DNA of 64,000 nt from NCBI GenBank assembly GCA_963666345.1, contig OY762721.1, positions 1,344,001-1,408,000 of the forward strand, written 5' to 3'. A program made the position numbers and the translations under genes. The DNA is from Desulfatiglandales bacterium. Lineage in GTDB: Bacteria > Desulfobacterota > DSM-4660 > Desulfatiglandales > Desulfatiglandaceae. The notes below the pieces were generated by a model. It ran no database searches and had not been told where the DNA came from. It saw nothing but the letters and a program-made list of their open reading frames with translations. Shown one piece after another: positions 41,438-61,828 of this stretch. Position 1 is the stretch's first letter. Every line of letters begins with the position of its first letter.

Positions 41438-41527
41438 AAAAAAGGCGCAAGAGTCTTTGTTTTTCAACAAATCCCATTGCACCTTCACTTCTTTACGCAC
41501 CGTGAGTCAGCCGAAAGCCGTAAGGAA
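41438..41527 (-). ncRNA. Candidate attenuator RNA, copy C (ATPase leader)
   Basis: CCUUACGG-[CUUU..AAAG stem]-AAGUGAAGGUGCAA...UUGCGCC-U6. Confidence 0.7.
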
Positions 41528-41716
41528 CTAAACATAAAGCTAGTTTACTTTAATATTGTGGCCCATTTTTATACCAAAATCGATCTGGTGTCAAGACCCA
41601 TCCAGAAAAATCCATCAACAAGACATATGGTTTATCGCCTGAACAGCTCTGATCACTGCGCATAAGATATGATTCGTTTCTCAGCCAAAGCCGCATCTAC
41701 TTTTTTATTTTTTTTG

Positions 41717-41791
41717 TTGACATTATAATTAAGAAGCTTTACTGTTTTATTGCATTAGTTAGCATCTCAAAACATCCTTAGTGATATCTAA
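41717..41791 (+). promoter_or_regulatory. sigma70 promoter with MarR-type operator and DtxR/Sir-like boxes
   Basis: TTGACA-17-TACTGT; TTAAGAAGCTTTA in the spacer; TTAGTGATATCTAA at 41778. Confidence 0.65.
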
Positions 41792-41919
41792 TTAATTCTA
41801 ATTGGCAATATAATATTAATGATAACAAGGTTACATTTCAGACTGGCAAGATAATTGAGGAATGCTTTTTCCTATAGCGTTAATTAAGTAGGTTAACTTA
41901 TAATCAAAGGAGCTTTTTC

Positions 41920-44900
41920 ATGTACATCATTGGACTCGATATCGGATATTCTTCTGCAAAAATGGTGCTGATTGATGAGCATGCACGGATAAGTTATTCA
42001 AATTATAGGCTTCATAAAGGCGACGCAGCAGGCGTAATCAGGCAATTTTTAGATGAGGCATCAAAGTCTTATCCCTTGTCTCAAATAGGGTATGGCGCCA
42101 TAACCGGCACCTGTGCCAGAATTTTGGGCAAATCAAAGGAAATCAACATAGTCAATGAGGTTGCAGCCCTTGTGGAGGGTGCCTTGGCAAGCCGGACAGG
42201 GGCACGCTCCATAATTGAAATAGGAGGTCAAAGCGCCAAATACATCACAGGCCTTAATTCTGATGACCGGTCCAGGATCAAGATCGCAATGAATTCGAAT
42301 TGCTCCTCAGGTACAGGATCATTTCTGGAGGAGCAGGTATCGCGCCTCAATCTGAGGCTTGAAGACTATTCCAGATATGCTGCAAGGGCCCGGACAATAC
42401 CCAGGATTGCCGGCCGTTGCAGCGTGTTTGCCAAAACTGATATCACCCATCACCAGCAGGAGGGGGTACCGGTTGAGGACATACTGCTGGGGCTCGCCTA
42501 TTCAGTTGTCAGGAACTACAGGGTGTCAGTCATGAGGAAACTTTCAATGGAAAAGCCGATCCTGCTTGCAGGCGGGGTTGCCCACAACAATGGAATACGC
42601 GCTGCCCTAAGAGATGTCCTTGATCTTGACAACGGGAAACTGATCATCCCCGAGCATATGGACTGCATTGCTGCGCTTGGCGCAGCAATGATAGCCCGGA
42701 ATGATATGCTTCACATTGACCTTGAACAGCTGGGCTCCAGGCTGAATCGGTCAAAAGGAACAATCGATATAACAGAAGACGGGACCACCCTGCCGCCCTT
42801 ATCTCTTTTCGGAAGCAATGACAGTTCGGGCAGACATAGAATCGTTGATACACAGACACGCTCCCTGGATTGCTATCTCGGGGTGGATGTGGGCTCAACA
42901 AGTACGAACCTTGTAGCCTCAGATAGGCAGGACCGGATCATCGGATTTCGCTATCTGAGAACGCATGGTAATCCTTTAGAGGCGGTCCGCAGCGGACTGA
43001 AATCTCTGGAAGATCAATTCAAGGGAAAGCTCAAAGTCCTTGGTGCATGCACCACCGGTTCAGGTCGCTATATGACGGCGAGGCTCATAGGAGCTGATCT
43101 GATAAAGGATGAAATCACTGCCCAGGCAAGGGCGGCCGTAACCATAGATCCTGATGTGGATACCATCTTTGAAATCGGGGGGCAAGATTCAAAGTATATA
43201 TCGATCAAAGACAGGGTGGTGACGGACTTTCAGATGAACAAAATCTGTGCTGCCGGCACCGGCTCATTTATAGAGGAGCAGGCAAAAAAATTCAATATCC
43301 CTCTAAACGAGATTGGGAGAAAGGCCCTGGTCGGTTTCCATCCGGTCAACCTGGGTGAACGGTGCACCGTGTTCATAGAATCAAGCATTGCGGCTCATCT
43401 GGCTAGTGGAGCGAAAATGGAGGATATCACGGCAGGACTCTGCTATTCCATTGTCAAGAACTACCTTAACCGGGTAGTCGGCCAAAAAAAAGTCGGGGAA
43501 AAGGTCCTTTTTCAGGGAGGAGTCGCCTACAACCAGGGAGTGGTGAACGCTTTCCGATGCCTTACAGGGAAAGAGATTCTCGTCCCACCCTTTTTTAGTG
43601 TCACAGGGGCATACGGAGCGGCTATCCTTGCCAGAGAATCAATGAAAGAAAGTGAAACAACCTTCAAAGGATTTCACCTGGAATCAAATGAGATCTTTTT
43701 ACAGAACGACAAGAGGCGAAAGGCAAAAAAGAAACGGGTTTCGAGATTCAACAGATCAGTTGAAGAGCTTATTTTTGAAGGATATACCAAAGAGCTTGAT
43801 CCGCGGAAAAAGACCGTGGGTATTCCAAGGGCGCTTTTTACTTATGGCATGTTCAGCATGTTTTACCGGATTTTCTCAGAACTTGGATTCAACGTGCTTT
43901 TATCCGACCCTACCAGCGAAAGGACCATCAGCCTGGGCCAGGAATACTCCCTGGAAGAGGCCTGCTATCCGGTCAAGCTTATAAACGGACATGTGGCCGA
44001 ACTGATCGATAAAAAGGTCGATTTCATCTTCTTCCCAGACCTTTATACTGTGGATCACCCCGGCTCACCCTCAAGGCAGAACTATGGGTGCGCGTATATG
44101 CAGCTTGCATTTAAGGTGGTAAATCAGGCCATGGACCTCGAAAGCAAAGGCATACAACTGCTCTCCCCTACCATTGCCTTCAGCCTGGGTAAGGAATTTA
44201 TGATGAACAGTTTCGCAGAACTTGGACGCCAGCTGGACAAAACCCCTCAGGAAACGATCCTTGCGCTGCAAAAAGGGGTAAAGGCGTTCCATGATTTCGA
44301 GGCAAGGATTGAAAGAGAGGGGAAAGAGGCCCTCAGGAAACTGGAGCCTAACAGTAAGGCCTTCGTTCTCATATCAAAGATCTACGGCATAGCCGACCCG
44401 GTATTGAACATGGGCATTCCGGACAAGCTGATGGATATGGGGTATCAGGTATTGCCCTTTTATTTTTTGCCTGAAGGGGACCTGTCAAAAGAACATCCCA
44501 ACATGTACTGGCCCTTTGGACAGCATATACTTGAGCCTGCGCAACTCGTGAGGGAGCATCCCAATCTCTATGCGATTCTGCTTACACACCACGGCTGCGG
44601 ACCTGATTCGGTCATGGCCCACTTTTTCAGAGAAGAGATGCAGGGAAAACCATATCTTCACATCGAGGTCGACGAACACTCCTCCGGGGTCGGAATCATC
44701 ACGCGGGTGGAGGCATTTGTAAACAGCCTGGACAATCTTGCCACAAAGACAGCCGAAGATGTAAATGTATATCTGAATAAAGTTTCCCACAAGGATGAAA
44801 ATATCAAAGAAAAATGTCTCAAGCCAAAACAAGCCACCACAATTTATCTTCCCTGCATCCACCCCTATTCGCAAATCGCCAAAGAACTCTTGGTCTCAAA

Positions 44901-45903
44901 AGGCATTGCAGCTGATGTACTGCCTCAGACCAGCCTGGACACGATCGACATTGGTAGAAAATTTACCATGGCCGAGGAGTATTTTTCACTCACCGCACTT
45001 ATAGGGGATATCTTGAGCAAATGCACCTTTGAGGGTAACGGGCAGTATGCCTTTTTTATCCCGAAAACGGAAGGGGCTGAGGTGGAAGGACAGTACAGCC
45101 GGATGCTCCGGATGAAACTTGATGAAGAAGGCTATTCCCATGTTGACATTATTTCTCCTTTTATGGAAGACCTTCTGGACAAAGAGGATGAAGGAGGACA
45201 TTCTCTGTTTATGTGCCTTATTGCTGGAGATATCATCCTTGCAGCACCGGCAGAAAAGCGTGATAAATATCTCCATCGCATATATGAACTTGCAAGGAAT
45301 CACAGCCTCAGGATAGATGAGCTTAAACTCATAGCAAAGGAAATACGCGGGGAGGTGCAAAAACGCCAATGGACAAAACAGATCCTTGCCATTGGCGAAC
45401 CATTGGTACTTTACAATGACTTTATGAATAATTTTACCTTTAAAGAAATTGAAAACAAGGGATATCGTGTTATCTACGCCCCTTTCAGTGAGGCCATGTG
45501 GCTGTTCTGGCGAGACCATGTTTATCAAAACGGCAGAGATGAAATGCGCTTGAACATATTGAGCAGACTCAGTGACGTCATTAAGGTAATTTCAAAATGC
45601 CTTGGTATGGAGGGACCGTTTGAAAGGGGTCCGGAGTCTCTCGCTAGCATTGCGGACGACAACGTCGGTTACTATGCCGGTGCATTCGGCCGATACAGGG
45701 GTTCCAAGATCCTGGGAGAACTCCGACTCGTGGACGGCATCATCACTGTCACATCCACATATGAGAACACGGGCATTTCGCTCAACATTCTGCAGAAAGG
45801 CCTTACAGGGAAAAGCCTGAAACCGATCCTCAACCTTGCATTTGATGGAAACCGCAATGAAAACGATGTTACCAAGCGCGAATCCTTTATCTATTATCTT
45901 TAG
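41920..45903 (+). CDS. Acyl-CoA dehydratase activase-like protein (two ASKHA/BcrAD ATPase domains plus DUF2229-type region)
   Basis: GLDIG/GVDVGSTST, EIGGQ twice, MN..C..GTGSF twice, RC.VF twice, GCGPD. Confidence 0.9.
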   Translation: MYIIGLDIGYSSAKMVLIDEHARISYSNYRLHKGDAAGVIRQFLDEASKSYPLSQIGYGAITGTCARILGKSKEINIVNEVAALVEGALASRTGARSIIEIGGQSAKYITGLNSDDRSRIKIAMNSNCSSGTGSFLEEQVSRLNLRLEDYSRYAARARTIPRIAGRCSVFAKTDITHHQQEGVPVEDILLGLAYSVVRNYRVSVMRKLSMEKPILLAGGVAHNNGIRAALRDVLDLDNGKLIIPEHMDCIAALGAAMIARNDMLHIDLEQLGSRLNRSKGTIDITEDGTTLPPLSLFGSNDSSGRHRIVDTQTRSLDCYLGVDVGSTSTNLVASDRQDRIIGFRYLRTHGNPLEAVRSGLKSLEDQFKGKLKVLGACTTGSGRYMTARLIGADLIKDEITAQARAAVTIDPDVDTIFEIGGQDSKYISIKDRVVTDFQMNKICAAGTGSFIEEQAKKFNIPLNEIGRKALVGFHPVNLGERCTVFIESSIAAHLASGAKMEDITAGLCYSIVKNYLNRVVGQKKVGEKVLFQGGVAYNQGVVNAFRCLTGKEILVPPFFSVTGAYGAAILARESMKESETTFKGFHLESNEIFLQNDKRRKAKKKRVSRFNRSVEELIFEGYTKELDPRKKTVGIPRALFTYGMFSMFYRIFSELGFNVLLSDPTSERTISLGQEYSLEEACYPVKLINGHVAELIDKKVDFIFFPDLYTVDHPGSPSRQNYGCAYMQLAFKVVNQAMDLESKGIQLLSPTIAFSLGKEFMMNSFAELGRQLDKTPQETILALQKGVKAFHDFEARIEREGKEALRKLEPNSKAFVLISKIYGIADPVLNMGIPDKLMDMGYQVLPFYFLPEGDLSKEHPNMYWPFGQHILEPAQLVREHPNLYAILLTHHGCGPDSVMAHFFREEMQGKPYLHIEVDEHSSGVGIITRVEAFVNSLDNLATKTAEDVNVYLNKVSHKDENIKEKCLKPKQATTIYLPCIHPYSQIAKELLVSKGIAADVLPQTSLDTIDIGRKFTMAEEYFSLTALIGDILSKCTFEGNGQYAFFIPKTEGAEVEGQYSRMLRMKLDEEGYSHVDIISPFMEDLLDKEDEGGHSLFMCLIAGDIILAAPAEKRDKYLHRIYELARNHSLRIDELKLIAKEIRGEVQKRQWTKQILAIGEPLVLYNDFMNNFTFKEIENKGYRVIYAPFSEAMWLFWRDHVYQNGRDEMRLNILSRLSDVIKVISKCLGMEGPFERGPESLASIADDNVGYYAGAFGRYRGSKILGELRLVDGIITVTSTYENTGISLNILQKGLTGKSLKPILNLAFDGNRNENDVTKRESFIYYL

Positions 45904-45919
45904 ATGTTTAAGATTGATC

Positions 45920-45948
45920 TTGACATAATATTTAAGCGGCTTTACCAT
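45920..45948 (+). promoter_or_regulatory. marR promoter with operator
   Basis: TTGACA-17-TACCAT with TTAAGCGGCTTTA inside. Confidence 0.7.
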
Positions 45949-45956
45949 ACTTCTGT

Positions 45957-46424
45957 ATGGAAAACAAAGAAGACCTTATAGAATCCATCCTGCGCCGGCT
46001 GATGAGGATAATCAACAAACAGAGGCGCATTGAGGAAATGCCGGTACGCATTGATAAGGACATTGAGGTGACTCCGACAGAGAGCCATACTGTTCAGACC
46101 ATCGGAGAGCGTAAATCAGTGAATGTTACTGATCTGGCTGCCCATTTCGGAGTCACCAAGAGTGCGGCATCACAAATAGTAACCAAACTTGCAAAAAAAG
46201 GTTTTGTTAAAAAAAGCGTGTCTGACCGCAGCGGTAAAGAATTACAATTGACTCTTACAGAGCTGGGTCGGCGCGCGTTCGAAGCGCACGAAAGATGTCA
46301 CGGACGGCATCTGGCTGACATTGTAACCCGTCTGGGTTCCTTTTCACTCTCGCAGATCGCAATTGCGGACGTCATGCTGGACGTTGTAGAAGACGTGATA
46401 AATGAGCGCCTTAAGAAGAAGTGA
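45957..46424 (+). CDS. MarR family regulator
   Basis: wHTH VTDLAAHFGVTKSAASQIVTKL.KKG...LTELG. Confidence 0.9.
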   Translation: MENKEDLIESILRRLMRIINKQRRIEEMPVRIDKDIEVTPTESHTVQTIGERKSVNVTDLAAHFGVTKSAASQIVTKLAKKGFVKKSVSDRSGKELQLTLTELGRRAFEAHERCHGRHLADIVTRLGSFSLSQIAIADVMLDVVEDVINERLKKK

Positions 46425-46512
46425 TATTTTTTTGGCCATATAGTTAAGTAGCTTAATCACTGGCAGGTTAATTTATTAACGAAGCAGCCCCAGGGTGGGA
46501 GGAGTTAAGATC

Positions 46513-47289: not shown

Positions 47290-47329
47290 CAGCTATGAGG
47301 CACGGGACCCATTAAAAGAGTTTAACGAA

Positions 47330-48499: not shown

Positions 48500-48581
48500 A
48501 GGCCGGTTGCCTGACAAAAACATGCTGACGCAGAAGCGGGATAGCAGTTAAGAAACACATATGAACTAAAGGAGGAGACAG

Positions 48582-49388: not shown

Positions 49389-49475
49389 TATTGAAACCAC
49401 TTACCATGCCAGCCCAAGATCAAAAAGGGTGATTCAGGACATGGGTAAAAGCTGAAAACCAGAAAGGATATTGAC

Positions 49476-50213: not shown

Positions 50214-50241
50214 GATCTGATACGTAAAATGGATAAGGCGC

Positions 50242-50853
50242 ATGACAGATAAAAGAAATGATACGTGCAAACAAAGGCATATACCCGGCAGAGGACACAA
50301 AGGTCATGGCCCCTCCAGCGCTTGGATGCATGACCCGAAAACAGTACTCGATCTCATCCCGCTTAAAGAGGGGCAAGTCTTTGCAGACCTGGGTTGCGGC
50401 ACGGGTGATTACGCAATTGAGGCATCGACCATAGTCGGAACAACCGGCAGGGTCTACGCATTGGACAAGTTGCCCTATTTGATAGACAATCTCTCAAACA
50501 CCATTAAATCCCCGGGTTTGAAAAACATCACACCCATAACGGCGGACATCACAGAGCCTCTACCCATAGACGACAAGAGTGTGGATGTGGCTTTCATCGC
50601 TACCGTGCTCCACATCTTCGATTTGAAGCGGATCGCAGTCACCCTTTTTGTCGAAGTCTCCAGGATACTCAAACCGTCAGGCCGCCTGGCTGTAGTCGAG
50701 TGCAAAAAAGAGGACCAGCCCTTTGGGCCGCCGGAACACATGCGGAATTCCCCGGAAGAGCTAATAGCGGCCCTGTCTCCCTGCGGGTTCATACAGAGAA
50801 CCTACACCGATCTGGGCTACAACTATATAATTCAAGTTGAAAAACGGCAATAG
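50242..50853 (+). CDS. Class I SAM methyltransferase with His-rich N-terminus
   Basis: DLGCGTG, LKPSG, GPP. Confidence 0.88.
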   Translation: MTDKRNDTCKQRHIPGRGHKGHGPSSAWMHDPKTVLDLIPLKEGQVFADLGCGTGDYAIEASTIVGTTGRVYALDKLPYLIDNLSNTIKSPGLKNITPITADITEPLPIDDKSVDVAFIATVLHIFDLKRIAVTLFVEVSRILKPSGRLAVVECKKEDQPFGPPEHMRNSPEELIAALSPCGFIQRTYTDLGYNYIIQVEKRQ

Positions 50854-50878
50854 GTTCCACAACCTCAGAGTTAATGCC

Positions 50879-51334
50879 ATGGGGACGCAATCCGAAAAAC
50901 AGAATAATAATAGCGGCCTGATTTCATCCACCATGGAAGACTACCTCAAGGCCATATTCGAACTGGATAAGCTCAAGAGGGTTGTCAGAGTAAAGGACAT
51001 CGCCAAAAAACTCGAGGTAAAGATGCCAACAGTGACCGGCATGCTCAAAAAGCTGGAAGAACGCGGGCTGGTCAGGCACAAAAAATATGAATTCGTTGAA
51101 TTGACAGTTACAGGGGCCTTCTTCGGAAATGAAATGCGGCGGCGGCATGCCATACTGCTCAGGTTTCTCACTGAGATCCTGAAAGTTGAAATAAAAACAG
51201 CTGCAGAGGAGGCATGCAAACTGGAGCATTTTCTAAGCAAGGGCACATTGGAAAACCTCATAGATTTTATGGATTTTGTGGAAGCCTGCCCGAGAGCTCA
51301 AGAAAGATGGCCTGACCGGTCAAAGGACTGCTGA
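50879..51334 (+). CDS. DtxR/MntR family metal-dependent repressor
   Basis: MEDYLKAI, RRH..L..FL, EACKLEH. Confidence 0.92.
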   Translation: MGTQSEKQNNNSGLISSTMEDYLKAIFELDKLKRVVRVKDIAKKLEVKMPTVTGMLKKLEERGLVRHKKYEFVELTVTGAFFGNEMRRRHAILLRFLTEILKVEIKTAAEEACKLEHFLSKGTLENLIDFMDFVEACPRAQERWPDRSKDC

Positions 51335-51395
51335 TGAAAGGATCTTGAGAAGTTTAAGCTCACTGTTCAAAGTTTGAGGAATCCGGTTTTAGGGG

Positions 51396-52700
51396 TTAAT
51401 CACATCCTTTGTCTTCAGGTTGACCGGGCTGTCGTTTGAAGAGCGATTGGACTCGAAATTGTATGATAATTTCCGAGACGACAAATCCGGCAAGGGTAAA
51501 AAAAACCAAAAGAGTGTATAAACCGGCTACACCCAGGTGATCTCCTACGGCACCAAAGGCAGGGGCTGTAGCCAATGGAAAGATGATGAAGAGGCTACTG
51601 AGAACCGCAAAACCTGTGCCCGACTGATGTCCCGCACTGACACGCATCATAATGGTAAAGGCCCATACATGAATAGCGCCGATTAGGATATTGTCCAGGG
51701 ACAGAATTAGGCCGGCCTGCCATAAGGACATGCTGTGTTTTGCTCCACAAATGGCTGTAAAACCTGCAAGTATAATTGATATCATACAAAAACATCGAAG
51801 GAATATCCTGTTTCCGGTTCGATATAAAAGCCATCCCGAAACAGCTGTTCCAGTCAAGCCAGCCGGGTAGGCAAAGCTCATAAGAAGGGTCCCGATTTCT
51901 TTGGGGCACAAACCAAGATCCGCCAGAACAGGCATCCGCATTTGAAACCCTGTAAAGGCAAAGGTGGTCGAAGCTATCAGCACCGCAATTAACCAGTAGA
52001 CCTTATCGCGCCGAAGGAAGGCAAGGATGCCGAACGCCTTTTCCTTTTTATCGCTCTGGCCTTCCTCCCGGACAGGAGGGATCTCCCGATGAAAAAATAT
52101 CGGAAGGCTGAGCAGAAAGGCTGCCCCGGCCAGAAATATACACAGGGCTTTCCAACTCATAAAGGAATAGAGGAAAAGCATCAGCCCCCCTCCCATCATC
52201 ATGCCGGCGAATCTGGCGCCTGCCTGGATTGTATTGCCCCAGGGGCGTTCTTCAGGATAAAGGATATCGGTTGCATACCCGTCAACCGCAATGTCATTGG
52301 TCGCCATGACCATATTAAGCAGAAGCAGAATCAGGTACATCGTGCTGAAATGAGTCTCCGGAGGGGTAAAAGAGACGCAAAGTAAGAGAACCGCCCCAAG
52401 CCACTGCAGGGGAAATATCCATGTTCGCCGTCTACCTATTGAAGGGATATAGATGCGGTCCACCCATGGGGCCCACAGGAATTTTATGGCCCATGGAAGA
52501 TGGAGGATAAAAAGAGCGCCTATTCCTTTCAGCGGCATATGAAGCTGTCGCATAATTACGGGAAGACTTCCGAACACAAAGCCCAAAGAAATTGTCTGAC
52601 ATAGATACATGGAAGTCAGAAGTCCAGCCTTGAACTCTCTGGGATGGTCTGACATCCATTTCTTTAAAAAATGCCTCATGTTATAGTCCTTTAAAAGCAA
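51396..52700 (-). CDS. MFS transporter, AmpG/RhtX/FptX-like
   Basis: LPWAIKFLWAPWVD, GRRR.W, AT.DIAVDG. Confidence 0.88.
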   Translation of the reverse strand: MLLKDYNMRHFLKKWMSDHPREFKAGLLTSMYLCQTISLGFVFGSLPVIMRQLHMPLKGIGALFILHLPWAIKFLWAPWVDRIYIPSIGRRRTWIFPLQWLGAVLLLCVSFTPPETHFSTMYLILLLLNMVMATNDIAVDGYATDILYPEERPWGNTIQAGARFAGMMMGGGLMLFLYSFMSWKALCIFLAGAAFLLSLPIFFHREIPPVREEGQSDKKEKAFGILAFLRRDKVYWLIAVLIASTTFAFTGFQMRMPVLADLGLCPKEIGTLLMSFAYPAGLTGTAVSGWLLYRTGNRIFLRCFCMISIILAGFTAICGAKHSMSLWQAGLILSLDNILIGAIHVWAFTIMMRVSAGHQSGTGFAVLSSLFIIFPLATAPAFGAVGDHLGVAGLYTLLVFFTLAGFVVSEIIIQFRVQSLFKRQPGQPEDKGCD

Positions 52701-52740
52701 TAAATGGCGAGAATCAGTGAGGTATTTTCCTTGATCATTT

Positions 52741-53640
52741 TTACGCCTCAGTTAAAGAAATGAAAGGGGATAACTCGTCCGAATTCAATGCCAAAGTAAT
52801 TGAAGGAAGGGCTGCCATGTCAACATGGAATAGATCATAAAATACAGGCGGGGATAAGTGGATGTAGACCATATGGGCATGGGTTTGGCCGGGGATGATC
52901 AGGTCCCCTTCCTGACGGTGAAGATATAATATGCCGCTTGTACCTTCGTGATTTGAAAAACCCTGCCCGGTAAGGTCCTGTGCCTTTATCAGGTTGATAT
53001 AGTGCCCCGAAAGTAGAAAACCTAAATTCAGGGTGGGCTGATTTTTTTCATATTCAAGCCTGAGTTTTTCCCTAGGCTCAATGTCCAAACGGCTGAGCCA
53101 GAATCCTTCTTTAATTCGATACACCCATCGATTTTGAGAGGGCAGTACCACCCCGGTTTTTTTATGGGAAAGGAGCTGCCAAAGGTGTCCCAGCATGATG
53201 CCCGGTTTGGTATGTTCATGTGTCATTCCGTCCTGAAAACTTATAAAAAACCCCTTGTCTTCAAGCTCGGTGGGACCACCCTTTACGAGGTCAACCAGGC
53301 TATCGAGAGGTTCGATGGACATCGATCTGAACATCTTCAGCAATCCTCCGAGGTGGGCAGGTGTGCAGCTTACGAAAAACTCTGCCGCCTCAGGACCGTT
53401 TCCGTACAAGCCGTATCGCTTTTCGACAATATCAATGGTCACAAGGGCGTTTAAGAACCTCTCCGTATTGCCCGCATGCGCATTGATGGAGGATGCGATA
53501 TCGGCTGCAGAGCGAAAACTGGTCATCTCATCATAAATGTTCAGCTCGATGCCTGCCATGAGCAGCCGTGTGCGTATGGGGGGCAGTGGCGATTTCATGA
53601 AGCGGTCCGTAACTGTTTTCAACCGCGGAAAGTTTTTCAT
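52741..53640 (-). pseudogene. Chimeric ORF: deleted O-methyltransferase fused to a truncated AraC (PchR-like) N-terminus
   Basis: O-MTase dimerisation domain without a SAM-binding motif, followed by an AraC-like N-region without an HTH. Confidence 0.55.
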
Positions 53641-53745
53641 TTTAACTTACATTATCCATTAAGTATCCTTTCGACTGCGGGCCGCTTGTCTTTGCTAAAA
53701 TACCCGCTAGGGCCGAAATATTCTAAGGTGAAGGTTTCTCAGCGC

Positions 53746-54147
53746 CTAGTCCACCATAAAGGCATTATGTTTCAACTTCGCTTGCGCGTAGAGCCTGAGC
53801 GCCTCGTCAATATCCTTTATATCGGTTGCTATCACCCTGACGCCGCGGCTTGAAAAGTGCCGGTAGGCACCGATGCCTATCATATTCACAATAAGCGCCT
53901 CGCAGTCCTTGAAAACATCAAACATGTCGTTATGCCTCTGCTCGGTGTCGGGGCCGAAGCCGTGCCTCCCCTTTTCATCCGTCTGGGGATGGGTCTCAAT
54001 GGCTGAAAAAATCTCATGCCCGGGCTTTTCCCTCTCCTCTTTGTCCACGATACTTCCTTCATCCAGGGTGTATACATGGATGCGGCCGCTGCCGCCGAAG
54101 TGCGTGGCTATATTTAACCCGTCATCCGTTGCCACCGCGATTTTCAT
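53746..54147 (-). CDS. NifB/NifX family metallocluster-binding protein
   Basis: MKIAVATDDG...HFG, IG.GA; His-rich insert. Confidence 0.85.
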   Translation of the reverse strand: MKIAVATDDGLNIATHFGGSGRIHVYTLDEGSIVDKEEREKPGHEIFSAIETHPQTDEKGRHGFGPDTEQRHNDMFDVFKDCEALIVNMIGIGAYRHFSSRGVRVIATDIKDIDEALRLYAQAKLKHNAFMVD

Positions 54148-54227
54148 ATCCCGCTCCTTTATCTGATAAGCGGGCGCGCCTTACTTAAGGCACGCCCGCA
54201 CAGGTTAAGCAAAAAAAAGGCTGGTCT

Positions 54228-55496
54228 CTAAAACTCCACAGCCAGTTTGACCGTAAACAGATTCCTGTCATCGGCTATCATGCCGGTGCCGTCCTGGTTG
54301 TCCTCATCATATTCGCCGTGCAGAAACTCCCCGGACAGGGTCATATTCTCGAAAAGATCATAGTTGCCCACGATTCCGTACTGTTTCTCAGGCACAAGGC
54401 CGTACATATCGCTGGTCCCCTCATACCTGAGGCCCACCTGAAGGGGTTCAATGGGTCTCATGGCAAGTTCCAGGTTATAGGCCGAGGGTTTTGTCTTCAT
54501 AGCCGTGCCCACACGGTTTACAGAGTAACCCATTTCACCCGCCCTGAAGTCATCGAGTGCTGTTATATACTCAGCGCCAAAGCTGTATATGCCGAATTCG
54601 CAGACAAAGTACGCAGCCACGCCACCCACAGTATCATCCAGATCGTTTAAAGCACCGTCTATATTGATATCCTGGACCTCGTCCTGAAGGGTGTCGCTGT
54701 CGGCCACGTTGTTGATATATGAAAGGCCCATGAGAAGGTTTACTCCTCCCAGGGTACCCTCGGGATTATGGATATTTACATCACCGAAAAACCCGTTTAT
54801 CCTGCCGTCGTCTTCAAAGTCATCCTCGATATCCCCGTGGTACACACCGGCTCCCAACGAAACCCATTCCCCCTCAAAGCCTGCCTCAAGAGCCGTTTCT
54901 CCCGCCTCAAAGACCACCTGGGTTACAGGGTCCGATACGAACCAGGTGTTAAGCTCCCCGAAGTGCGGACAGTATTTTCCGGCCAGGAGATAAAATCCTT
55001 TTGTATCCTCTGTTCCGCCCAGAAGAAGGGTGGCCTCATCGACCCTTAGCCTGTCCGCGTCCTCATCTTCCTCATACAGGAGGGTAACGTGCCCCTTGGC
55101 ATACCTGTTTATGTCCATGTCAAGACCCAGTTCAAATGTTGAAAGGGCTATGTCGTCGTTTGTCACGCTGTCTGACTGAAGAGTTACAGGATTGATGGTA
55201 TCTGCCTTTTCACTTCCGAATTCCACTTCAATGGCACCGGACAGTCCTATCTTTTCGGTCCATTCCACCCCCTCTTTTACCGCATCGGAAAAAGTGGCCT
55301 TTTCATTAAGATCGGCCATCTGCCTCTCTTTTTTCTGAAGCTCTTCTTCAAGTTGCCCCATTCTTTCCTTCATATCCTTTATTTCCTGCATAAGCTCATA
55401 GTTTGACATCTCGCCTGCAAATGCCGGAATGCATGGCATGGCGCCGCACAACGAAATACACATAATCAGCTTTAATAGCTTTTTCATCTTCTGCAC
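54228..55496 (-). CDS. LbtU-like outer-membrane (siderophore) porin
   Basis: Signal peptide, coiled coil, SG.IEVE, LLYEE, SDP, terminal Phe. Confidence 0.75.
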   Translation of the reverse strand: MQKMKKLLKLIMCISLCGAMPCIPAFAGEMSNYELMQEIKDMKERMGQLEEELQKKERQMADLNEKATFSDAVKEGVEWTEKIGLSGAIEVEFGSEKADTINPVTLQSDSVTNDDIALSTFELGLDMDINRYAKGHVTLLYEEDEDADRLRVDEATLLLGGTEDTKGFYLLAGKYCPHFGELNTWFVSDPVTQVVFEAGETALEAGFEGEWVSLGAGVYHGDIEDDFEDDGRINGFFGDVNIHNPEGTLGGVNLLMGLSYINNVADSDTLQDEVQDINIDGALNDLDDTVGGVAAYFVCEFGIYSFGAEYITALDDFRAGEMGYSVNRVGTAMKTKPSAYNLELAMRPIEPLQVGLRYEGTSDMYGLVPEKQYGIVGNYDLFENMTLSGEFLHGEYDEDNQDGTGMIADDRNLFTVKLAVEF

Positions 55497-55541
55497 ACTC
55501 CTTTCCTCTTTTCATAGTTCATTGACATGTCCGCAAATGAA

Positions 55542-56549
55542 TTATCCGGCGAATGCCTTTATCCATTTTAAGAGAACGACCGGATACTCAAGCACACCCG
55601 AATCGGCATAAAAAGGCAGGTTATAAAGGGCCATCTCTTTGACCGCCTTTACCTTCATGATCTCAGGGTGTTCTTTTGAATAGGTCCTTATCGTCTTCTG
55701 CACGGCAAAGGCGTCACCCGTCATAACGATCACGTCAGGGTTGGCCTTGATTATAGGGGCCAGGTCCATCCCTTTCCTTGTCTTGCGCACCAAGTAATGG
55801 CCCTTTTCAGTTTTACCGCCCGCAGGCATGAAGCAGTCCCCGACATTGACGCAACCCAGGGGTCCAAGCAGAAACCTGTCTGAATATCCTCCAGGGGCCT
55901 CCACCCTCAACAGGCACTTCCCGGTTGAAGGCTGATATGTGCCGCTTAGGATAATTACCTTGTTACCCAGTTTCCGTGCAGGAAGTTTTGTCTTTGCCGC
56001 TGCCAGATCCTTTTTGTATCTTTCAATCACCACTTCGGCCTTTGCTTCCCGTCCCACAAGTCGGCCAACCTTCAGTACCGCCTGCTCCAACCCGGCTGAA
56101 AAATCAACAAACTCTATCTTGACACCCTGCTTTTCCATGATCGGAACAATGTTTTCCGGTTTCACCTTCGGCATGTAGAGGCAGAAGGGATCGCTTTTTT
56201 CAACAATGATCCGGCTTATACCCATCTTTTTGCACGCATTCGGAACCACCTGCTTTTTTATGGATACACATCGCGGGCACCCCAGCATCTGGGATGCGGT
56301 CTTGAGCCTTTTCGCCATGGGCCACAGCGACCCCCTTACCGACATTGCCTCGGGAATCACGCCAAGGTTAAAGGCGATATCAACCACCCGGTCCCCTATG
56401 ATGATGGTCTTTATCTTCTCGGGTGGCGGGGATTTCATCCCCGCCTCAGCCTTTACAGGCAGAAGCGTCACAGCAAAGATAAGGGCCAGTGCAGCCGCCC
56501 ATGACGCAACAACCTTGAAATAAAACCGTTTTTTCAAATTCTCTTTCAT
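55542..56549 (-). CDS. Periplasmic metal/siderophore-type substrate-binding protein
   Basis: Signal peptide, NPDVI, AVK...Y.LP pattern; CPRC. Confidence 0.65.
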   Translation of the reverse strand: MKENLKKRFYFKVVASWAAALALIFAVTLLPVKAEAGMKSPPPEKIKTIIIGDRVVDIAFNLGVIPEAMSVRGSLWPMAKRLKTASQMLGCPRCVSIKKQVVPNACKKMGISRIIVEKSDPFCLYMPKVKPENIVPIMEKQGVKIEFVDFSAGLEQAVLKVGRLVGREAKAEVVIERYKKDLAAAKTKLPARKLGNKVIILSGTYQPSTGKCLLRVEAPGGYSDRFLLGPLGCVNVGDCFMPAGGKTEKGHYLVRKTRKGMDLAPIIKANPDVIVMTGDAFAVQKTIRTYSKEHPEIMKVKAVKEMALYNLPFYADSGVLEYPVVLLKWIKAFAG

Positions 56550-56568
56550 GATAGTCTTCTCCGATTCT

Positions 56569-57600
56569 TTAAAATTTCATTGCCAGCTTGACCACGACCT
56601 GGAAATCCTCTGAAAGCTGGGTGCCGTTCAGATCCCGGTAGACCGGAATCGGAACGCAGGCGTCAAGATGCATCCCCTTGTGAAACTTGAAATGAACGCC
56701 GGGGGATAGGTATATGACATGGCCGCCAGTGTTTTCCTGCTTTTGGCCGTCAAGTTTTGCCTTTCCCTTTACATCCCCGTTCAGCTCAAGTCCCAGATCA
56801 AACAGCCTTGATACTGCATAGCCGTAGGCAAAGTTATATTTAAACCGATCCGGTTTCTCATAATCCCTGCTCCCCAGCTCACCTTCAGTGGAGAGCTTGC
56901 ACATGAAATAGCTTGACAGCCAGTGCCGGCCGATAACCTTGTGAGCGCCAAGCTCCACTATCGGATCCCACGAACCTGAACCGGTCTGCAAAAATCCGGG
57001 CAGGAACACGCCTGCCTCGTCTTTCTCGTCTGTTTCCCCGGTAGGCATCTTCACTCCCACGCCGACAGCCATATTAAGAGGGTCTTTTCGCTTCTGCGAC
57101 ATGATCCTGTACCTGGAAATGAGTTTTATGTCGCCTACCCCTGAATTGCTGTCTGCAAAGTCCTTTGTCTTGGAATGCCTGTACATATGCTTGTCAAGAA
57201 ATGGAACCACCACACGAGCATCAAAGTTCTCAAATATCCCGGCTCGCAGGGTGAGCTGATACTTATCCGTAGTCTTTTTACTCACCTTTTTGCCTGGCCC
57301 TGTGGGCCTTGCAAAATCTACCTCATCGTCTCCTTGGTAAAGCTGGTCCTCTATGACGTTGATATATTTAAGTATGATCCCACATTCGCCCTTCTCATAG
57401 ACTCCTCCATTGCTTTGATTCACCGGCCCCACAGGCCTGGGCCCCTTTGCCTGCTTATCCTTCTGAGCAGCACCCGCTGGCTCGACCTGGACGATGAGCA
57501 GACACAGGGCAAGAAAAAGGCCCTGCACAATCCACGGTATCAGCTTGGATCTATTTGATCTGATTTTACACATCTGACGTGATTCTCCTTTTCGTTTCAT
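56569..57600 (-). CDS. Outer-membrane beta-barrel 'transporter' (MetA-pathway-like)
   Basis: G.GDI, K.PTG, Q.GSGSWD, NG.Q, terminal Phe. Confidence 0.75.
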   Translation of the reverse strand: MKRKGESRQMCKIRSNRSKLIPWIVQGLFLALCLLIVQVEPAGAAQKDKQAKGPRPVGPVNQSNGGVYEKGECGIILKYINVIEDQLYQGDDEVDFARPTGPGKKVSKKTTDKYQLTLRAGIFENFDARVVVPFLDKHMYRHSKTKDFADSNSGVGDIKLISRYRIMSQKRKDPLNMAVGVGVKMPTGETDEKDEAGVFLPGFLQTGSGSWDPIVELGAHKVIGRHWLSSYFMCKLSTEGELGSRDYEKPDRFKYNFAYGYAVSRLFDLGLELNGDVKGKAKLDGQKQENTGGHVIYLSPGVHFKFHKGMHLDACVPIPVYRDLNGTQLSEDFQVVVKLAMKF

Positions 57601-57602
57601 TT

Positions 57603-57682
57603 AAAAAGGCGCAAAGGGGCTGTATAGTACAGACCCTGTTGCGCCTTCACTTGTCCCGCCTGTTATCGGGACCCGTAAGACA
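57603..57682 (-). ncRNA. Candidate attenuator RNA, copy B
   Basis: UGUCUUACGG-[GUCCCG/CGGGAC]-AAGUGAAGGCGCAA...UUGCGCC-U5. Confidence 0.7.
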
Positions 57683-57786
57683 GCCTCCTTAAAATCTTCA
57701 GAGACCTTGCATCAGTTTTTTCTTCTCTTTTCGGTGCCGCCGGGAATCAGACCATTTTCTGATGCCGGCCGCCCTTTGCGCCCATA

Positions 57787-58584
57787 TTATTTCATGTCAC
57801 GCGCCTGCACCCATATCACTGCGTCCTGGGACAACTCTTTACCCTTAAATTTATCAGCCGGACCCGCGCCGAGCGCGCAAAAGCCCCACCATCCGGCCCT
57901 GGGGATGCCGAAGGAAAACTCACCGTTTACATTAGCCTTGATGGTCATGGTTACAAAGGCATCCTGTGGGGCCTCGACCTGAGCCTCTTTTGCAAATGCG
58001 TTTTTTTCCATCATCGGCATGTGGTTCATGTACTCCACCTCTATCTCGGCATACGGTACCGGTTTTCCGTCCCCTTTTACGATTCCCCTGAATACGTTGC
58101 CTGTCCAGAGCGCATAAGGCTTGTCAAGGGGCACGATTTCCGCGGGCATGCCTAACTCAGCATCCCAGTCGGTCGGGAAACCGCCCGTGTTGACTATTAC
58201 CTTGCTTATCTGCTGTATGTAGCAGTCTTCTTCCTTTTCATAATACGGAGAAGGCACAAGACAGAACACATTGTCACCCATACCTCTCAGCTTATAGTCA
58301 GCTTCATAGGCCTTTCCGCTGTTTGTAAGGCTTACCCAGTTAATGGGCCTGAGGGTATCTAAGAGGTCCTTTTTCTTTCCCTTTCGAACGACAAAGAACT
58401 GCTCCGGCTCTCCCATGTCCATGGTGTGCCCCGCCTCAAAGGGGTGAGTGAAGACAAGCTTCATGTCTATATTCTCAGCCTTATCAAGGGCCGCATCAGG
58501 TGTGTAGATCATCTGGAAATGGGCAAACGCCGGAGCCGCCGTCATCAGGAACAATCCTGCCAGTAAAACGATCGCTTTTTTCAT
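57787..58584 (-). CDS. DUF4198 (NikM/CbiK-like) periplasmic protein
   Basis: AHFQMIY, FTHPF, EIVPL.KPY, GWWGF. Confidence 0.85.
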   Translation of the reverse strand: MKKAIVLLAGLFLMTAAPAFAHFQMIYTPDAALDKAENIDMKLVFTHPFEAGHTMDMGEPEQFFVVRKGKKKDLLDTLRPINWVSLTNSGKAYEADYKLRGMGDNVFCLVPSPYYEKEEDCYIQQISKVIVNTGGFPTDWDAELGMPAEIVPLDKPYALWTGNVFRGIVKGDGKPVPYAEIEVEYMNHMPMMEKNAFAKEAQVEAPQDAFVTMTIKANVNGEFSFGIPRAGWWGFCALGAGPADKFKGKELSQDAVIWVQARDMK

Positions 58585-58705
58585 GCTGTTATCTCCTTTT
58601 GTCTTCTGATTTTGTAAATTGTCGATTAATCAAATAGTTGAATAATGTACCTGTTTTAAGAGCATAGGAAATAGACTGACAGCTGATAGCTGACAGCTTG
58701 TTCAA

Positions 58706-59023
58706 TCACTCGGTTATCTCGCTTCCCTTGACCTCTATCTCGTGGCCGGGGCCTGCATCAAAGATCACCTTGTAGTCGCCCTGAGGCTTGTCAAAGGTAA
58801 ATTCACTGTCCTGGTCCATCTTGCCTTCGAGCAGAACCTTTTCCCCGCTCTTAACTCTCATCTTTACCCCCGCCGCAGAAGAGCCGTCCGAGAAGCCCCC
58901 CTCGCAGGTGATCGAGCCGTCCCCGTTGTCATAGCAGGAACAAAGCGGAGTGTGAGCCAAGGCAAAACCGTAAAAGCCCAGAAAAAGCCCAACCATGGCG
59001 ACTAAAAATACTTTTTTGAACAT
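58706..59023 (-). CDS. Small periplasmic protein, N-terminal His, putative metal binding
   Basis: AHTPLCSC...GGFSDGS...DAGPGH. Confidence 0.75.
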   Translation of the reverse strand: MFKKVFLVAMVGLFLGFYGFALAHTPLCSCYDNGDGSITCEGGFSDGSSAAGVKMRVKSGEKVLLEGKMDQDSEFTFDKPQGDYKVIFDAGPGHEIEVKGSEITE

Positions 59024-59043
59024 TTTGAAATCCTCCTTTTTTG

Positions 59044-61503
59044 TTAATATTCAGACCTGTTTTTGATAAATCCCATCAAAATTGTGAAACTCAACGCCAG
59101 ACCGTAAAATGCCATCATCGCCTGGACTCCCGTCAGCCCCAGGGCGCTTCCCCCTGAAAAGACGAGTACTGCCACAAATAGCCCCAGAATCATCGGGTAT
59201 ATCATGGAAAAAAGCATCCATTTGACCGACCCGGTCTGTATCTTTACGGCGATCGTAGTAGCGATACAGGGCGGATAGAGCACCATAAAGAGCATCAGGG
59301 CAAGGGCGTGAAGCGAGGTAAAGGCCCCCTCCTGCTTTTCCATGCGCTTTTCCAGACTTTCACCTTCATCCTCCTGCTGGTAAAGGGCACCCAGCGTTGC
59401 CACACTGCTCTCCTTGGCTGCAAAGGCGCTCAAAAGGGCCACGTTCACCCGCCAGTTAAAACCGGCCCACCTGCTCGCGGGCTCAAGCACTCTGCCCAGC
59501 CTTCCGAGAAAACTGTTGTCGATATTCTCCTTTCTGATCTCCCTTAAAAGCCTTTTTCTGGCCTTAAAGAGTTTTTTAAAGGCACGGTTGACCTTTTTGG
59601 CCTCTTTGTCCTTTCCCGGCCTTACGATCCTGAAAAAACCAGGATTCTTCTCCCTGAATTTCTCGTTCAGGGCGGCTGTGGCCTCCTTACCCTTTGTACC
59701 CATCTTTGCGCCCTTGTAGTCATCCCAGTAAAGGACAAGCGGCATGAGGTTTTCTTTGTTTAGCCTGTCCGCATAGACCGTTCCCTGAATCTTCTTCAGG
59801 AATGAACCGACCGCCCTTTCTTTTTCACCCTCGTAATATTGAACCCTCTGCGCATCCAGCCTTGGGAACTGAAGGAGCACGAATATGACGACAGCCACAG
59901 CAGCCACAATGGTGGTTATCTTCCTGATGAAGAGCCACACCCTCTCGGTCGCCCTTTTGAGAACGCTTCTTACGGAAGGGATATGGTAGGGAGGCATCTC
60001 CATCACAAAGGGGGCGGTATGCCTTTTCCTTAAGACGGTAAGGGTCAGAAGCTTTGATATCGGCAGCACGCAGAGCAGGCTTATGGTGGAGATAAAAAGC
60101 ATGGCAAGGGTTTTGTGCTCGGCAAAGTAGATATTTATGAGAAGCACGTAAAGCGGGACCTTGGCAAGGCAGTTTAAGAGCGGAATTATCAGTATGGTCG
60201 CAAACCTTGATCTCTCGTCAGGGATCCCCTTGCACGACATGACCGCGGGAACCGCGCATCCTCCCACATACACACCCCCGAGCACCATCGGGAGGGTTGA
60301 TTGCCCGTGAAGGCCGAAGCGGCTGAAAAGCCTGTCCATGATAAAGGCCATCCTGGGCATATAGCCGCTGTCCTCCAGGATGGCTATAAGGCTGAAGAGT
60401 ATGAAAAATATCGGGATATAGTTTAAAAGTGCGTTTATGCTGTCAACAAACCAGAGCGCAAAAGCGCGTATGACGGGCACATCGATAAAACCGGGCGTAG
60501 GAGAAACGGCCTCCGTGAAGCTTCTTATCTGGGCCAGAAGGGGCCAGGTATAATTTGTGACCCTGTATCCCTGGACAATGGAAAGGTAGTAGAGAAGCCA
60601 TATCACACCGATCAGAACAACAGGCCCCATAAAACGGTTGCACACGACCCTGTCTATTCTTTCAGACAAGGGCACCTTCCAGGTATCCTTGCTTGTACAT
60701 GACCTTATGATTTCATCGGCTGTCTCATATCTCCTGTGGGCGATATGAACCGCCGGCAGCTCACCGTGGCGGGCCTCAAAATCAGACCTGAGTCTTTCCA
60801 CCTTCTCAAGGAACTCGTCCGCATCCGCATGGTGCTCCCTTATGAGCCTTTGGACCTCACCGTCTCCCTCCATAAGCTTTATTGCCAGCCACCGGCCGGG
60901 CAGATCGGACGGACCGGCCTTCTCCGCTGAGATCATCTCCTCTAACTTGCGGATAAACTCCTCCATTTCGCCGTAATCGATCCTGGATCCCGCACGTCTT
61001 TCCTTTTTGCCGACGATATTGTTGATCGCCTTAAGGACTTCTTTTTTACCCTTGCCTTTCTTGATCGAGGTAGGCACCACCGGCAGGTTGAGTCTCTCGG
61101 AAAGCCTGTTCACGTCGATCTTTAGTCCCCTTCCCTCGGCCACATCCATCATGTTGAGTTCGAATAACAGGGGGATGTCCATTTCTATGAGCTGAAAGGT
61201 AAGATAGAGGCTTCTTTTAAGGGTGGCGGCATCTGCAATATTTATTATCAGATTCGGCTTTTCACTGATGATAAAATCCCTTGAAACCCTTTCTTCAAGG
61301 CTGTAGGAGGTGAGGCTGTAGGTGCCAGGAAGGTCCACTACTTCTATCTTTTTCCCGTTATGCCTGTACCAGCCCGACATCTTATCGACCGTTACACCCG
61401 GGTAATTGGCCACATGCTGGCTTGCGCCTGTAAGCGAATTGAACAGGGTGGATTTTCCGCAGTTCGGCTGTCCTGCAAGGGCTATGACCGCATCCTTTTT
61501 CAT
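59044..61503 (-). CDS. feoB: Ferrous iron transporter B
   Basis: GQPNCGKS, NYPGVTV, DLPG.YSL, NMMD, LEDSGY, ME.PPY. Confidence 0.96.
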   Translation of the reverse strand: MKKDAVIALAGQPNCGKSTLFNSLTGASQHVANYPGVTVDKMSGWYRHNGKKIEVVDLPGTYSLTSYSLEERVSRDFIISEKPNLIINIADAATLKRSLYLTFQLIEMDIPLLFELNMMDVAEGRGLKIDVNRLSERLNLPVVPTSIKKGKGKKEVLKAINNIVGKKERRAGSRIDYGEMEEFIRKLEEMISAEKAGPSDLPGRWLAIKLMEGDGEVQRLIREHHADADEFLEKVERLRSDFEARHGELPAVHIAHRRYETADEIIRSCTSKDTWKVPLSERIDRVVCNRFMGPVVLIGVIWLLYYLSIVQGYRVTNYTWPLLAQIRSFTEAVSPTPGFIDVPVIRAFALWFVDSINALLNYIPIFFILFSLIAILEDSGYMPRMAFIMDRLFSRFGLHGQSTLPMVLGGVYVGGCAVPAVMSCKGIPDERSRFATILIIPLLNCLAKVPLYVLLINIYFAEHKTLAMLFISTISLLCVLPISKLLTLTVLRKRHTAPFVMEMPPYHIPSVRSVLKRATERVWLFIRKITTIVAAVAVVIFVLLQFPRLDAQRVQYYEGEKERAVGSFLKKIQGTVYADRLNKENLMPLVLYWDDYKGAKMGTKGKEATAALNEKFREKNPGFFRIVRPGKDKEAKKVNRAFKKLFKARKRLLREIRKENIDNSFLGRLGRVLEPASRWAGFNWRVNVALLSAFAAKESSVATLGALYQQEDEGESLEKRMEKQEGAFTSLHALALMLFMVLYPPCIATTIAVKIQTGSVKWMLFSMIYPMILGLFVAVLVFSGGSALGLTGVQAMMAFYGLALSFTILMGFIKNRSEY

Positions 61504-61724
61504 CGCAGAGTCACCTCCACAAACCTTGCCTCGTCATGTCTCAGGCTCACGAAATTGCCATCCAGATCCAGTTCCATCGGATCATTTAGCGGCGCGTTCC
61601 TTATTACCTTCACGCTCAGGCCCGGATACACGCCCATATCGAGCAGTCTCTGCCCCAGTTTATCGATTGCCGACAGTTTCTTGATTACACATTCATCACC
61701 CGGTTTCATCTGATCCAGCGTCAT
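61500..61724 (-). CDS. feoA: Ferrous iron transport protein A
   Basis: RLLDMG..PG...APL.DP...LR..EA; AAGGAG RBS before ATG 61724. Confidence 0.93.
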   Translation of the reverse strand: MTLDQMKPGDECVIKKLSAIDKLGQRLLDMGVYPGLSVKVIRNAPLNDPMELDLDGNFVSLRHDEARFVEVTLR

Positions 61725-61740
61725 TACCTGCTCCTTTTCA

Positions 61741-61828
61741 AAAAAAAAGGCGAAACAGGACACATGCATGTGCCCTTGTTCCGCCTTCACTTCTCACGCG
61801 CCGTTTAAAGGCCGCGAGCCGTAAGACA
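61741..61828 (-). ncRNA. Candidate attenuator RNA, copy A (feoA leader)
   Basis: UGUCUUACGG-[CUC..GAG stem]-AAGUGAAGGCGG...UCGCC-U8. Confidence 0.7.

Follow-up and report, generated by a model that had tools for sequence, protein, structure and literature searches.

Three leader RNAs at an iron-uptake locus

We analysed a stretch of 64,000 nucleotides (nt) from the genome of a Desulfatiglandales bacterium (GCA_963666345.1, contig OY762721.1, positions 1,344,001 to 1,408,000; hereafter the window), in which an initial annotation, made from the sequence alone, had marked three copies of a candidate antiterminator/terminator RNA in the leaders of metal-uptake genes. The three leaders are real and lie on the minus strand at the positions given there. 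Leader 1 (61739..61839) precedes feoA (61500-61724) and feoB (59044-61503), which encode a ferrous iron transporter (Pfam FeoA 2e-18, FeoB_N 1.2e-62), and behind them the genes of a NikL-like and a DUF4198 protein. Leader 2 (57602..57693) lies within that transcription direction, inside the operon between the DUF4198 gene and an outer-membrane barrel gene, with the barrel, binding-protein and siderophore-porin genes behind it, and leader 3 (41437..41538) precedes the gene of a heavy-metal P1B-type ATPase (39379..41244; E1-E2_ATPase 3e-39, TIGR01525 2.1e-136). All of these genes are on the minus strand.

The search pattern CTTACGG-N8-38-AAGTGAAGG matches the window three times (41482-41524, 57644-57679 and 61784-61825) and 100 dinucleotide shuffles of it not once; across the whole 4.16 Mb genome the same exact pattern finds these three sites only. 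From the three window copies and nine exact-pattern matches in relatives we built a covariance model, R1, which scores leaders 1, 2 and 3 at 88.6, 74.9 and 69 bits and finds a fourth copy in the source genome (leader 4, G000:C1:1408939-1409035), about 0.9 kb beyond the window end; the four copies score 69-89 bits and the next best match 16.5 bits. A pattern search in relatives that allowed one mismatch was discarded as noise, its control counts being as high as the real ones, and later searches relied on exact matches and the covariance model alone.

The motif also lies outside known families, as the annotation had supposed. Against Rfam 15, whose families include czcD/NiCo, yybP-ykoY, M-box, Moco and cobalamin, at the gathering score, the whole window returned two tRNA genes (34343-34416 and 34606-34680, plus strand) as its sole matches and no family for the leaders, and the three leader regions of 351 nt each, searched at E <= 10, gave only chance matches of 8-16 bits to miRNA, snoRNA and plastid models. 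A full-text literature search, which did not extend to subscription-only papers, found no description of this RNA or of the protein X introduced below.

Two exclusive folds on one common strand

Each window copy folds into an outer helix P1, a GG/AA internal loop and an inner helix P2, followed by a strong hairpin and a U-run (z -5.7, -5.3 and -3.0). In leader 1, P1 joins the 5' strand AUGUCUUAC (61829-61821) to the 3' strand GUGAAGGCGG (61790-61781) and encloses GG (61820-61819), P2 (61818-61793) and AA (61792-61791), with the terminator hairpin at 61786-61748 and the U-run at 61747-61739. The same elements of leader 2 are CUGUCUUAC (57683-57675) and GUGAAGGCGC (57650-57641) for P1, GG (57674-57673), P2 (57672-57653), AA (57652-57651), the terminator (57646-57607) and the U-run (57606-57602), and those of leader 3 are CCUUAC (41525-41520) and GUGAAGGUGC (41488-41479), GG (41519-41518), P2 (41517-41491), AA (41490-41489), the terminator (41484-41443) and the U-run (41442-41437). 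All window copies thus carry the hairpin and U5-9 of an intrinsic terminator.

Pairing was counted in 90 R1 matches from genomes, 83 of them distinct. Among these 83 homologues the antiterminator structure is 86.5% paired, compared with 74.2% in shuffles, and its covariation score is 0.393 against 0.187, a value that none of 500 shuffles reached. The covarying inner hairpin proposed from the three window copies alone is borne out: P2 covaries strongly, its first pair being UA in 33, CG in 27 and GC in 18 sequences, and each outer P2 pair uses three to six standard pair types. The proposed pairing of the 5' strand with GUGAAGG likewise holds, and P1 is in fact longer. The inner P1 (CUUAC with GUGA-AG, one A bulged) is nearly invariant, and a CCUAC with GUGAGGG variant at three loci (L085, L051, L216) retains its pairing; beyond it, AUGUCUUAC pairs with GUGA-A-GGCGU, so that AUGU, 5' of CUUAC, pairs with GGCGU. 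The four extension pairs form in 79, 78, 69 and 54 of the 83 sequences. By alignment column, pair 14-80 is UG in 65, CG in 13 and UA in 1 (4/83 unpaired), pair 13-81 GC in 71, AU in 4 and GU in 3 (5/83 unpaired), pair 12-82 UG in 55, CG in 8 and UA in 6 (14/83 unpaired) and pair 11-83 AU in 41, GC in 9 and GU in 4 (29/83 unpaired), with both GC-to-AU and AU-to-GC double changes present.

The extended 3' strand, GGCG(U), doubles as the 5' arm of the terminator, in which the pairs covary too. GGCG(U) can therefore pair either with AUGUC (pairs 11-14 with 80-83) or with the terminator 3' arm, and forcing one fold excludes the other; since the segment is common to both, the two folds are mutually exclusive, as the annotation had argued. 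The leaders accordingly have what is expected of an attenuator, namely two exclusive helices on one common strand, each conserved or covarying. For 79 of the 83 distinct copies the fold of lowest energy is the terminator, and the antiterminator can be imposed only at a mean cost of +7.0 kcal/mol. The leader alone should therefore terminate, and a helper is needed for read-through.

The consensus is a single P1-loop-P2 hairpin with a terminal loop of varying length. A further helix, P0 (UAAG with CUUG beyond a second GR/AA loop), was rejected at only 59.8% paired, and a leader peptide (AUG UCU UAC ...) was rejected because leaders 2 and 3 do not have the AUG. Two other conserved features were seen: a GG (consensus W-AGG-R) 8-9 bases upstream of CUUAC, in the window (61829-61840 and 57684-57693) and in homologues, and the terminator stem sequence GGCG(U/C)AAC, which is conserved beyond what a terminator needs.

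Distribution of the RNA and the genes behind it

The annotation had suggested building a covariance model from the copies and searching genomes for enrichment by gene context, and this search found the motif widely and before iron-uptake genes. R1 matched 44 of 105 genomes in the family (E <= 0.01) and 45 of 151 in the order (E <= 0.001; labelled Desulfobacterales); in the class it matched 51 of 151 genomes, drawn from the same six families as the order sample, and across the phylum sample 8 of 151, including four other families. An exact-pattern scan with one genome per species returned at least 125 stretches. Among the matches listed are Desulfobacteraceae, Desulfosarcina, Desulfonema, Desulfatiglans, Syntrophobacteraceae and Syntrophaceae, together with single metagenome-assembled genomes (MAGs) labelled Acidobacteriota, Omnitrophota, Planctomycetaceae and WOR-3; one Raoultella match is probably due to chance. 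The RNA family is widespread and previously undescribed.

The gene 3' of the leader was examined at 50 leaders and is feoA or feoB in 25, which upholds the proposed link to metal genes specifically for iron uptake. The remaining leaders precede porins (8/50), DUF3450 genes at the head of ExbB-ExbD-TonB units (4/50), DUF2325 proteins (4/50), TonB-dependent receptors (2/50), genes with no Pfam family (2/50) and, once each, TonB, a P1B ATPase with HMA_2, DUF1007, FmdE and a response regulator. Larger clusters add units of an extracytoplasmic function (ECF) sigma factor, FecR and a receptor, as well as periplasmic binding proteins, and one operon has a flavodoxin further down. The genes behind the leaders are an iron-acquisition and iron-starvation set.

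Promoters and candidate operators

Upstream of leader 1 (61832..61900, minus strand), a -35 box TTGACA (61900-61895) and the palindrome CTAATATAATTAG (61844-61832; CTAA-N5-TTAG) have the look of a promoter with an operator. A palindrome of this type (TTAG-N6-CTAA or CTAA-N5-TTAG) stands upstream of 38 of the 149 distinct leaders that have at least 100 nt of upstream sequence and in 0 control windows, and 35 of those 38 leaders also have a TTGACA-like -35 box. Leader 3 has promoter-like TTGACA (41594-41589) and TATAAA (41573-41568) sequences and no TTAG/CTAA palindrome, so the RNA would be the only iron-linked control there.

The window encodes a DtxR-family iron-dependent repressor of 167 amino acids (50837..51334, plus strand; PF01325 at G000:C1:1394924-1395091, 69.4 bits, over the cut-off), which we regard as a candidate binder of the TTAG/CTAA operators. 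The IdeR consensus has a different spacing. Two clusters from different families (G135 and G213) have a DtxR-family gene directly upstream of the gene of protein X, in the order dtxR-X-leader-feoAB or DUF2325. With these genes and the palindromes at 38/149 leaders, the suggestion that the RNA is layered on DtxR-type control is plausible. The leader-controlled iron clusters of the same two genomes also encode fusions of a metalloregulator to FeoA (Fur-FeoA, L220:12525-13208, in G135; DtxR-FeoA, L226:14575-15345, in G213).

A small protein encoded next to the leaders

What stands out upstream of the leaders is either a promoter of their own or a conserved open reading frame (ORF) of about 97 amino acids, which we call X; other genes, such as DUF4198, occupy the remaining loci. 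At approximately 50 of 128 distinct leaders, the X stop codon lies 0-47 nt ahead of the leader start. In the source genome X lies beyond the window end (G000:C1:1409048-1409335), before leader 4 and a DUF2325 gene, and its promoter carries TTGACA and TTAGATCCATCTAA.

X matches no Pfam or NCBIfam family, the sole hit being IraP at 17.7 bits (cut-off 23.2; E 0.0058). There are 620 homologues of similar length, and the source names among the 120 listed are all 'hypothetical protein'; a PDB sequence search gave one match at E 0.31, and the ESM Atlas only 'hypothetical protein' clusters. The AlphaFold model of X is all-helical, with a predicted local distance difference test (pLDDT) score of 81 and a predicted template modelling (pTM) score of 0.43, and its nearly invariant C-terminal helix (..ETIEVLEESRKAFKSKRLEALRKKL..) presents one strongly basic face. 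Semi-conserved His and Cys residues (ELHxxIDMH, C-x4-CP) might let X itself sense iron or redox state.

RNA and protein occur together. In the same 151 genomes the RNA is found in 45, X in 44 and both in 38; X is mostly single-copy and the RNA present in 1-6 copies per genome, which looks like one regulator with several targets. Seven genomes have the RNA only, three of them with only weak terminator-like matches and four of them draft MAGs with strong ones; assembly gaps could explain roughly these four X-less genomes. Among the six with X only, G159 has a variant RNA when the search filters are turned off, and X is partial, broken, weak or at a contig edge in the others. X is probably the RNA-binding partner of the leaders.

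In a relative of high GC content (G333), another of the X-only genomes, X is directly followed by a degenerate leader (UUUACGG..AGUGAAAGCGCAAC; L243:1765-1900) whose hairpin has no clear U-run, and which may be a decayed copy or a variant independent of an intrinsic terminator. The DUF2325 gene is a frequent neighbour behind X, whether or not a leader intervenes, and also occurs in genomes without the RNA; its product, of about 420 amino acids, consists of an N-terminal domain containing Cys, a long coiled coil and, at the C-terminus, DUF2325, and the DUF2325 literature found concerns only an unrelated Campylobacter protein and an encapsulin cargo.

Response regulators ending in the X domain and a sister class of RNAs

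A set of 104 longer X homologues, of about 245 amino acids, all have a receiver domain (REC) as their only Pfam domain and the X signature at the C-terminus (C-x4-CP ... ETIEVLExTKSAFKSKxLGELRKKLE). By this signature, the X domain is also an output domain of response regulators, which we call REC-X. The sources name members of this large family (here L249, L250 and the metagenome loci below) no more closely than 'CheY-like', 'OmpR family' or 'FixJ family'. Within the order, two genomes have a REC-X gene, both with variant leaders adjoining it.

For a broader view we collected 80 metagenome loci with a REC-X gene (L268-L347), 72 of which have at least 150 nt downstream. R1 gave 39 matches on the 80 loci, 37 of them on the strand of the gene, and in 32 of the 72 loci a match lies 34-561 nt behind the REC-X stop codon on the same strand; a second model, R2, built from the REC-X-locus matches, adds about 10 loci. 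The RNAs behind REC-X genes form a sister class, with the consensus GGGUCGCCUUGUCG-[P2]-AAGUCGAAGGCACAA plus terminator and the motif GCCUUGNCG..AAGUCGAAGGCAC plus terminator. AAGUGA(A/G)GG is found in 77 of 83 RNAs of the iron set as against 1 of 53 of the REC set, and the one-base-longer AGNNGAAGG in 46 of those 53, counts that are partly circular, since the model used to gather each set was one of that same class. Behind the REC-class leaders lie genes for regulators, kinases, NuoE-like [2Fe-2S] thioredoxin-like ferredoxins, CsbD stress proteins and others.

Proposed mechanism and alternatives

Our preferred reading, to which we give a slightly better than even chance, is a factor-dependent antiterminator held by X behind a DtxR-gated promoter, in a feed-forward response to iron starvation. 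The nascent leader would fold the antiterminator (P1, the GG/AA loop and a variable P2), whose 3' strand is the terminator 5' arm; left to itself the RNA would prefer the terminator, and polymerase would stop before the iron-acquisition genes. A trans-acting factor, most likely X, would hold the antiterminator hairpin and so permit read-through. The core module would be an iron-repressed promoter followed by X, leader and feoAB, with X as the first gene, directly before the leader. Under iron scarcity a DtxR-type repressor would come off its operators and allow X to be synthesised. With X present, transcription would run on through the leaders of feoAB, TonB-dependent receptors, ExbBD-TonB, porins and the P1B ATPase, X thus acting as a feed-forward second gate; leader 3, which has no palindrome, would take its iron signal only through X. 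We favour X as the holder because it is the first cistron before the leader, because it is single-copy where the RNA is multi-copy, and because REC-X genes are followed by class-matched RNA. The initial annotation had left the choice between a riboswitch and a protein-bound antiterminator; the latter part of that alternative is favoured, since the X family and its REC-X fusions track the RNA and its subclasses.

Several observations weigh against this reading. X has no known RNA-binding fold; Foldseek finds no PDB match at E <= 0.001, and the pTM of its model is only 0.43. No X is detected at E <= 10 in G015 (95% complete), G026 (87%), G070 (89%) or G182 (96%), and G015, with four leaders, is the main observation against an obligatory X. 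In G123, X is directly followed by a DUF2325 gene with no leader between. X and the leader adjoin physically, and their co-occurrence is therefore not independent evidence of interaction. About 30 of the 72 REC-X loci have no RNA match by either model, and the circularity of the subclass counts belongs here as well. Finally, the conserved GG upstream of CUUAC fits no pairing tried, P0 with its 59.8% included.

Some of the same facts would suit a true riboswitch, in which a metal ion or small molecule, bound by P1 and the GG/AA loops, stabilises the antiterminator and turns the genes on, X being merely a co-regulated iron-starvation protein. Conserved bases lie in and around the purine-purine internal loops, and loops of this kind can bind divalent metals; four RNA-positive genomes have no detectable X; and at leader 3, which has no operator, a signal must come from the RNA itself. 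A metalloregulator acting over a riboswitch is also known, for ModE and the Moco RNA (PMC11672702). We nevertheless consider a riboswitch unlikely. Its aptamer would overlap the terminator arm, so that the ligand turns genes on, which is awkward for Fe2+ on iron-uptake genes: for feoAB, TonB-dependent receptors and flavodoxin the ligand would have to signal iron need, not iron. A single hairpin with a near-invariant helix sequence is, in our judgement, more typical of protein sites, and the class-matched RNAs behind genes of the X domain, including REC fusions in many phyla, would be left unexplained.

The switch could also be real and set by something other than X, either another protein or the ribosome finishing X, with X itself serving, for example, as a partner of DtxR or Feo. 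At many loci the X stop codon lies about 10-15 nt before the P1 5' strand, and in many X-upstream loci the gap from the stop codon to the start of the model is 0-10 nt, such that a terminating ribosome could cover the AUGU of P1; X also adjoins DtxR genes in the two clusters described above. Against the ribosome, the 38 palindrome-bearing leaders of the 149 (35 with a TTGACA-like -35 box) have no X directly upstream and leader 2 follows a different gene, and with so many leaders lacking X upstream a cis effect of the ribosome is not general. As for another protein, that of DUF2325 was rejected as the factor, occurring in 18 of 151 genomes, RNA-negative ones among them. We think a factor other than X rather improbable. 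The stability of the terminator fold in 79 of 83 copies would also suit constitutive partial terminators (insulators or attenuators of fixed strength), and the leaders might in principle be operators at the DNA level, either way with no signal-dependent RNA switching; a fixed terminator, however, needs no conserved 5' partner strand, double changes keep pairs 13-81 and 11-83, and the hairpin and strand orientation are conserved across phyla, while a DNA operator does not need the P2 covariation. We regard explanations of this kind as very improbable.

Relation to known antiterminators and metal-responsive leaders

A review of RNA-binding antiterminators lists the CAT, ANTAR and HutP proteins (PMC12591593). 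As described there, ANTAR proteins (AmiR, NasR, EutV, NasT) resemble the proposed system in having a small helical RNA-binding output domain, without a receiver or fused to REC by a helical linker, in stabilising an antiterminator against an intrinsic terminator (for X, as proposed) and in serving several leaders with one regulator (PMC12591593). In REC-X, X occupies the position of ANTAR in AmiR and EutV. There is no Pfam match to ANTAR (PF03861) in X at E <= 1 or in REC-X at E <= 0.1, an hhalign comparison of the X alignment with the GAF-ANTAR protein of the source genome gave a probability of 0.1%, and the RNA differs, being one long hairpin with a GG/AA loop and a bulge where ANTAR RNA has two tandem hexaloop hairpins.

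With BglG, SacY, LicT and GlcT and their RAT RNAs, and with HutP, the leaders share the order of regulator gene, terminator/antiterminator and structural genes, and an antiterminator with conserved sequence and internal loops that overlaps the terminator 5' arm and is too weak unaided. About 50 of the 128 loci have the HutP-type layout, promoter-X-leader-feoAB or DUF2325; the likeness does not go beyond gene order. Pfam finds no CAT, PRD or HutP domain in X and nothing but REC in REC-X. The proposed signals are iron starvation for X and phosphorylation for REC-X, as opposed to sugars and histidine, and the hosts here are Desulfobacterota and other Gram-negative phyla.

The czcD (NiCo/Fe(II)) and yybP-ykoY (Mn2+) RNAs are likewise leaders with terminator platforms beside metal transport genes, P1B ATPases included. 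These known metal riboswitches turn on exporters at high metal and have multi-helix junction folds (PMC11672702), whereas the RNA described here precedes uptake genes, is a single hairpin and has no Rfam match at E <= 10. The Moco/ModE system combines, as here, a metal-sensing repressor at the promoter with an RNA element in the leader (PMC11672702), although the Moco RNA differs in structure and acts as an OFF switch for a cofactor, and Rfam gives no match to it in our leaders.

We would put at a little under even the chance that, next to CAT/PRD and ANTAR, the X domain and its hairpin make up a third large family of RNA-binding antiterminators under the control of signals. On its own the domain would then serve as the second gate of the iron-starvation regulon in Desulfobacterota and scattered other phyla, and fused to REC as the output domain of a large family of orphan response regulators. 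These regulators, found by source names in Nitrospinota, Gemmatimonadales, 'Xenobiia' and others, would act on genes for kinases, regulators, [2Fe-2S] ferredoxin-like proteins and CsbD stress proteins.

Bacterial iron uptake is taught as promoter control, by Fur and DtxR, together with small RNAs, and sulfate reducers live where sulfide strips iron from solution. If the proposed mechanism is true, these bacteria would add a new layer of regulation, in which antitermination gates feoAB, TonB-dependent receptors and TonB-ExbBD. An unannotated RNA family is linked to an unannotated protein domain that ends many response regulators, and if that domain binds this RNA, those regulators gain a function and a new RNA-protein recognition module comes into view. 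A module this compact (an RNA of about 50 nt and a protein of about 60-100 amino acids) would lend itself well to structural studies and to the engineering of synthetic termination control.

Other genes of the locus

The NikL-like protein behind feoAB (58706-59023) has 105 amino acids and matches NCBIfam NF058648 at 1e-12, below its cut-off, and the DUF4198 protein (57787-58584; Pfam DUF4198 2.4e-56) is periplasmic. Behind leader 2 the minus strand carries the outer-membrane barrel (56569-57552), a Peripla_BP_2 binding protein (55542-56549), an LbtU-family siderophore porin (54228-55496; NCBIfam LbtU_sider_porin 1.2e-63), a NifX-like protein (53746-54147), a protein of 299 amino acids (52741-53640) and a major facilitator superfamily transporter (51396-52700). 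The LbtU-family porin, and the NikL-like protein beside DUF4198, suggest a composite outer-membrane and periplasmic route of metal uptake in the feo locus.

At its far end the window holds the tail of the promoter-X-leader 4 unit (61983..64000, minus strand), which begins outside it. This tail comprises the C-terminal part of the DUF2325 protein (63638-64000, running off the window; whole gene G000:C1:1407638-1408888) and ORFs of 126 (63162-63542) and 354 amino acids (61983-63047). Two genes of the phage-integrase family (L237:3778-5610; G000:C1:1409777-1411609) border the iron locus immediately upstream of the X promoter, and with such neighbours the locus may have been acquired or rearranged.

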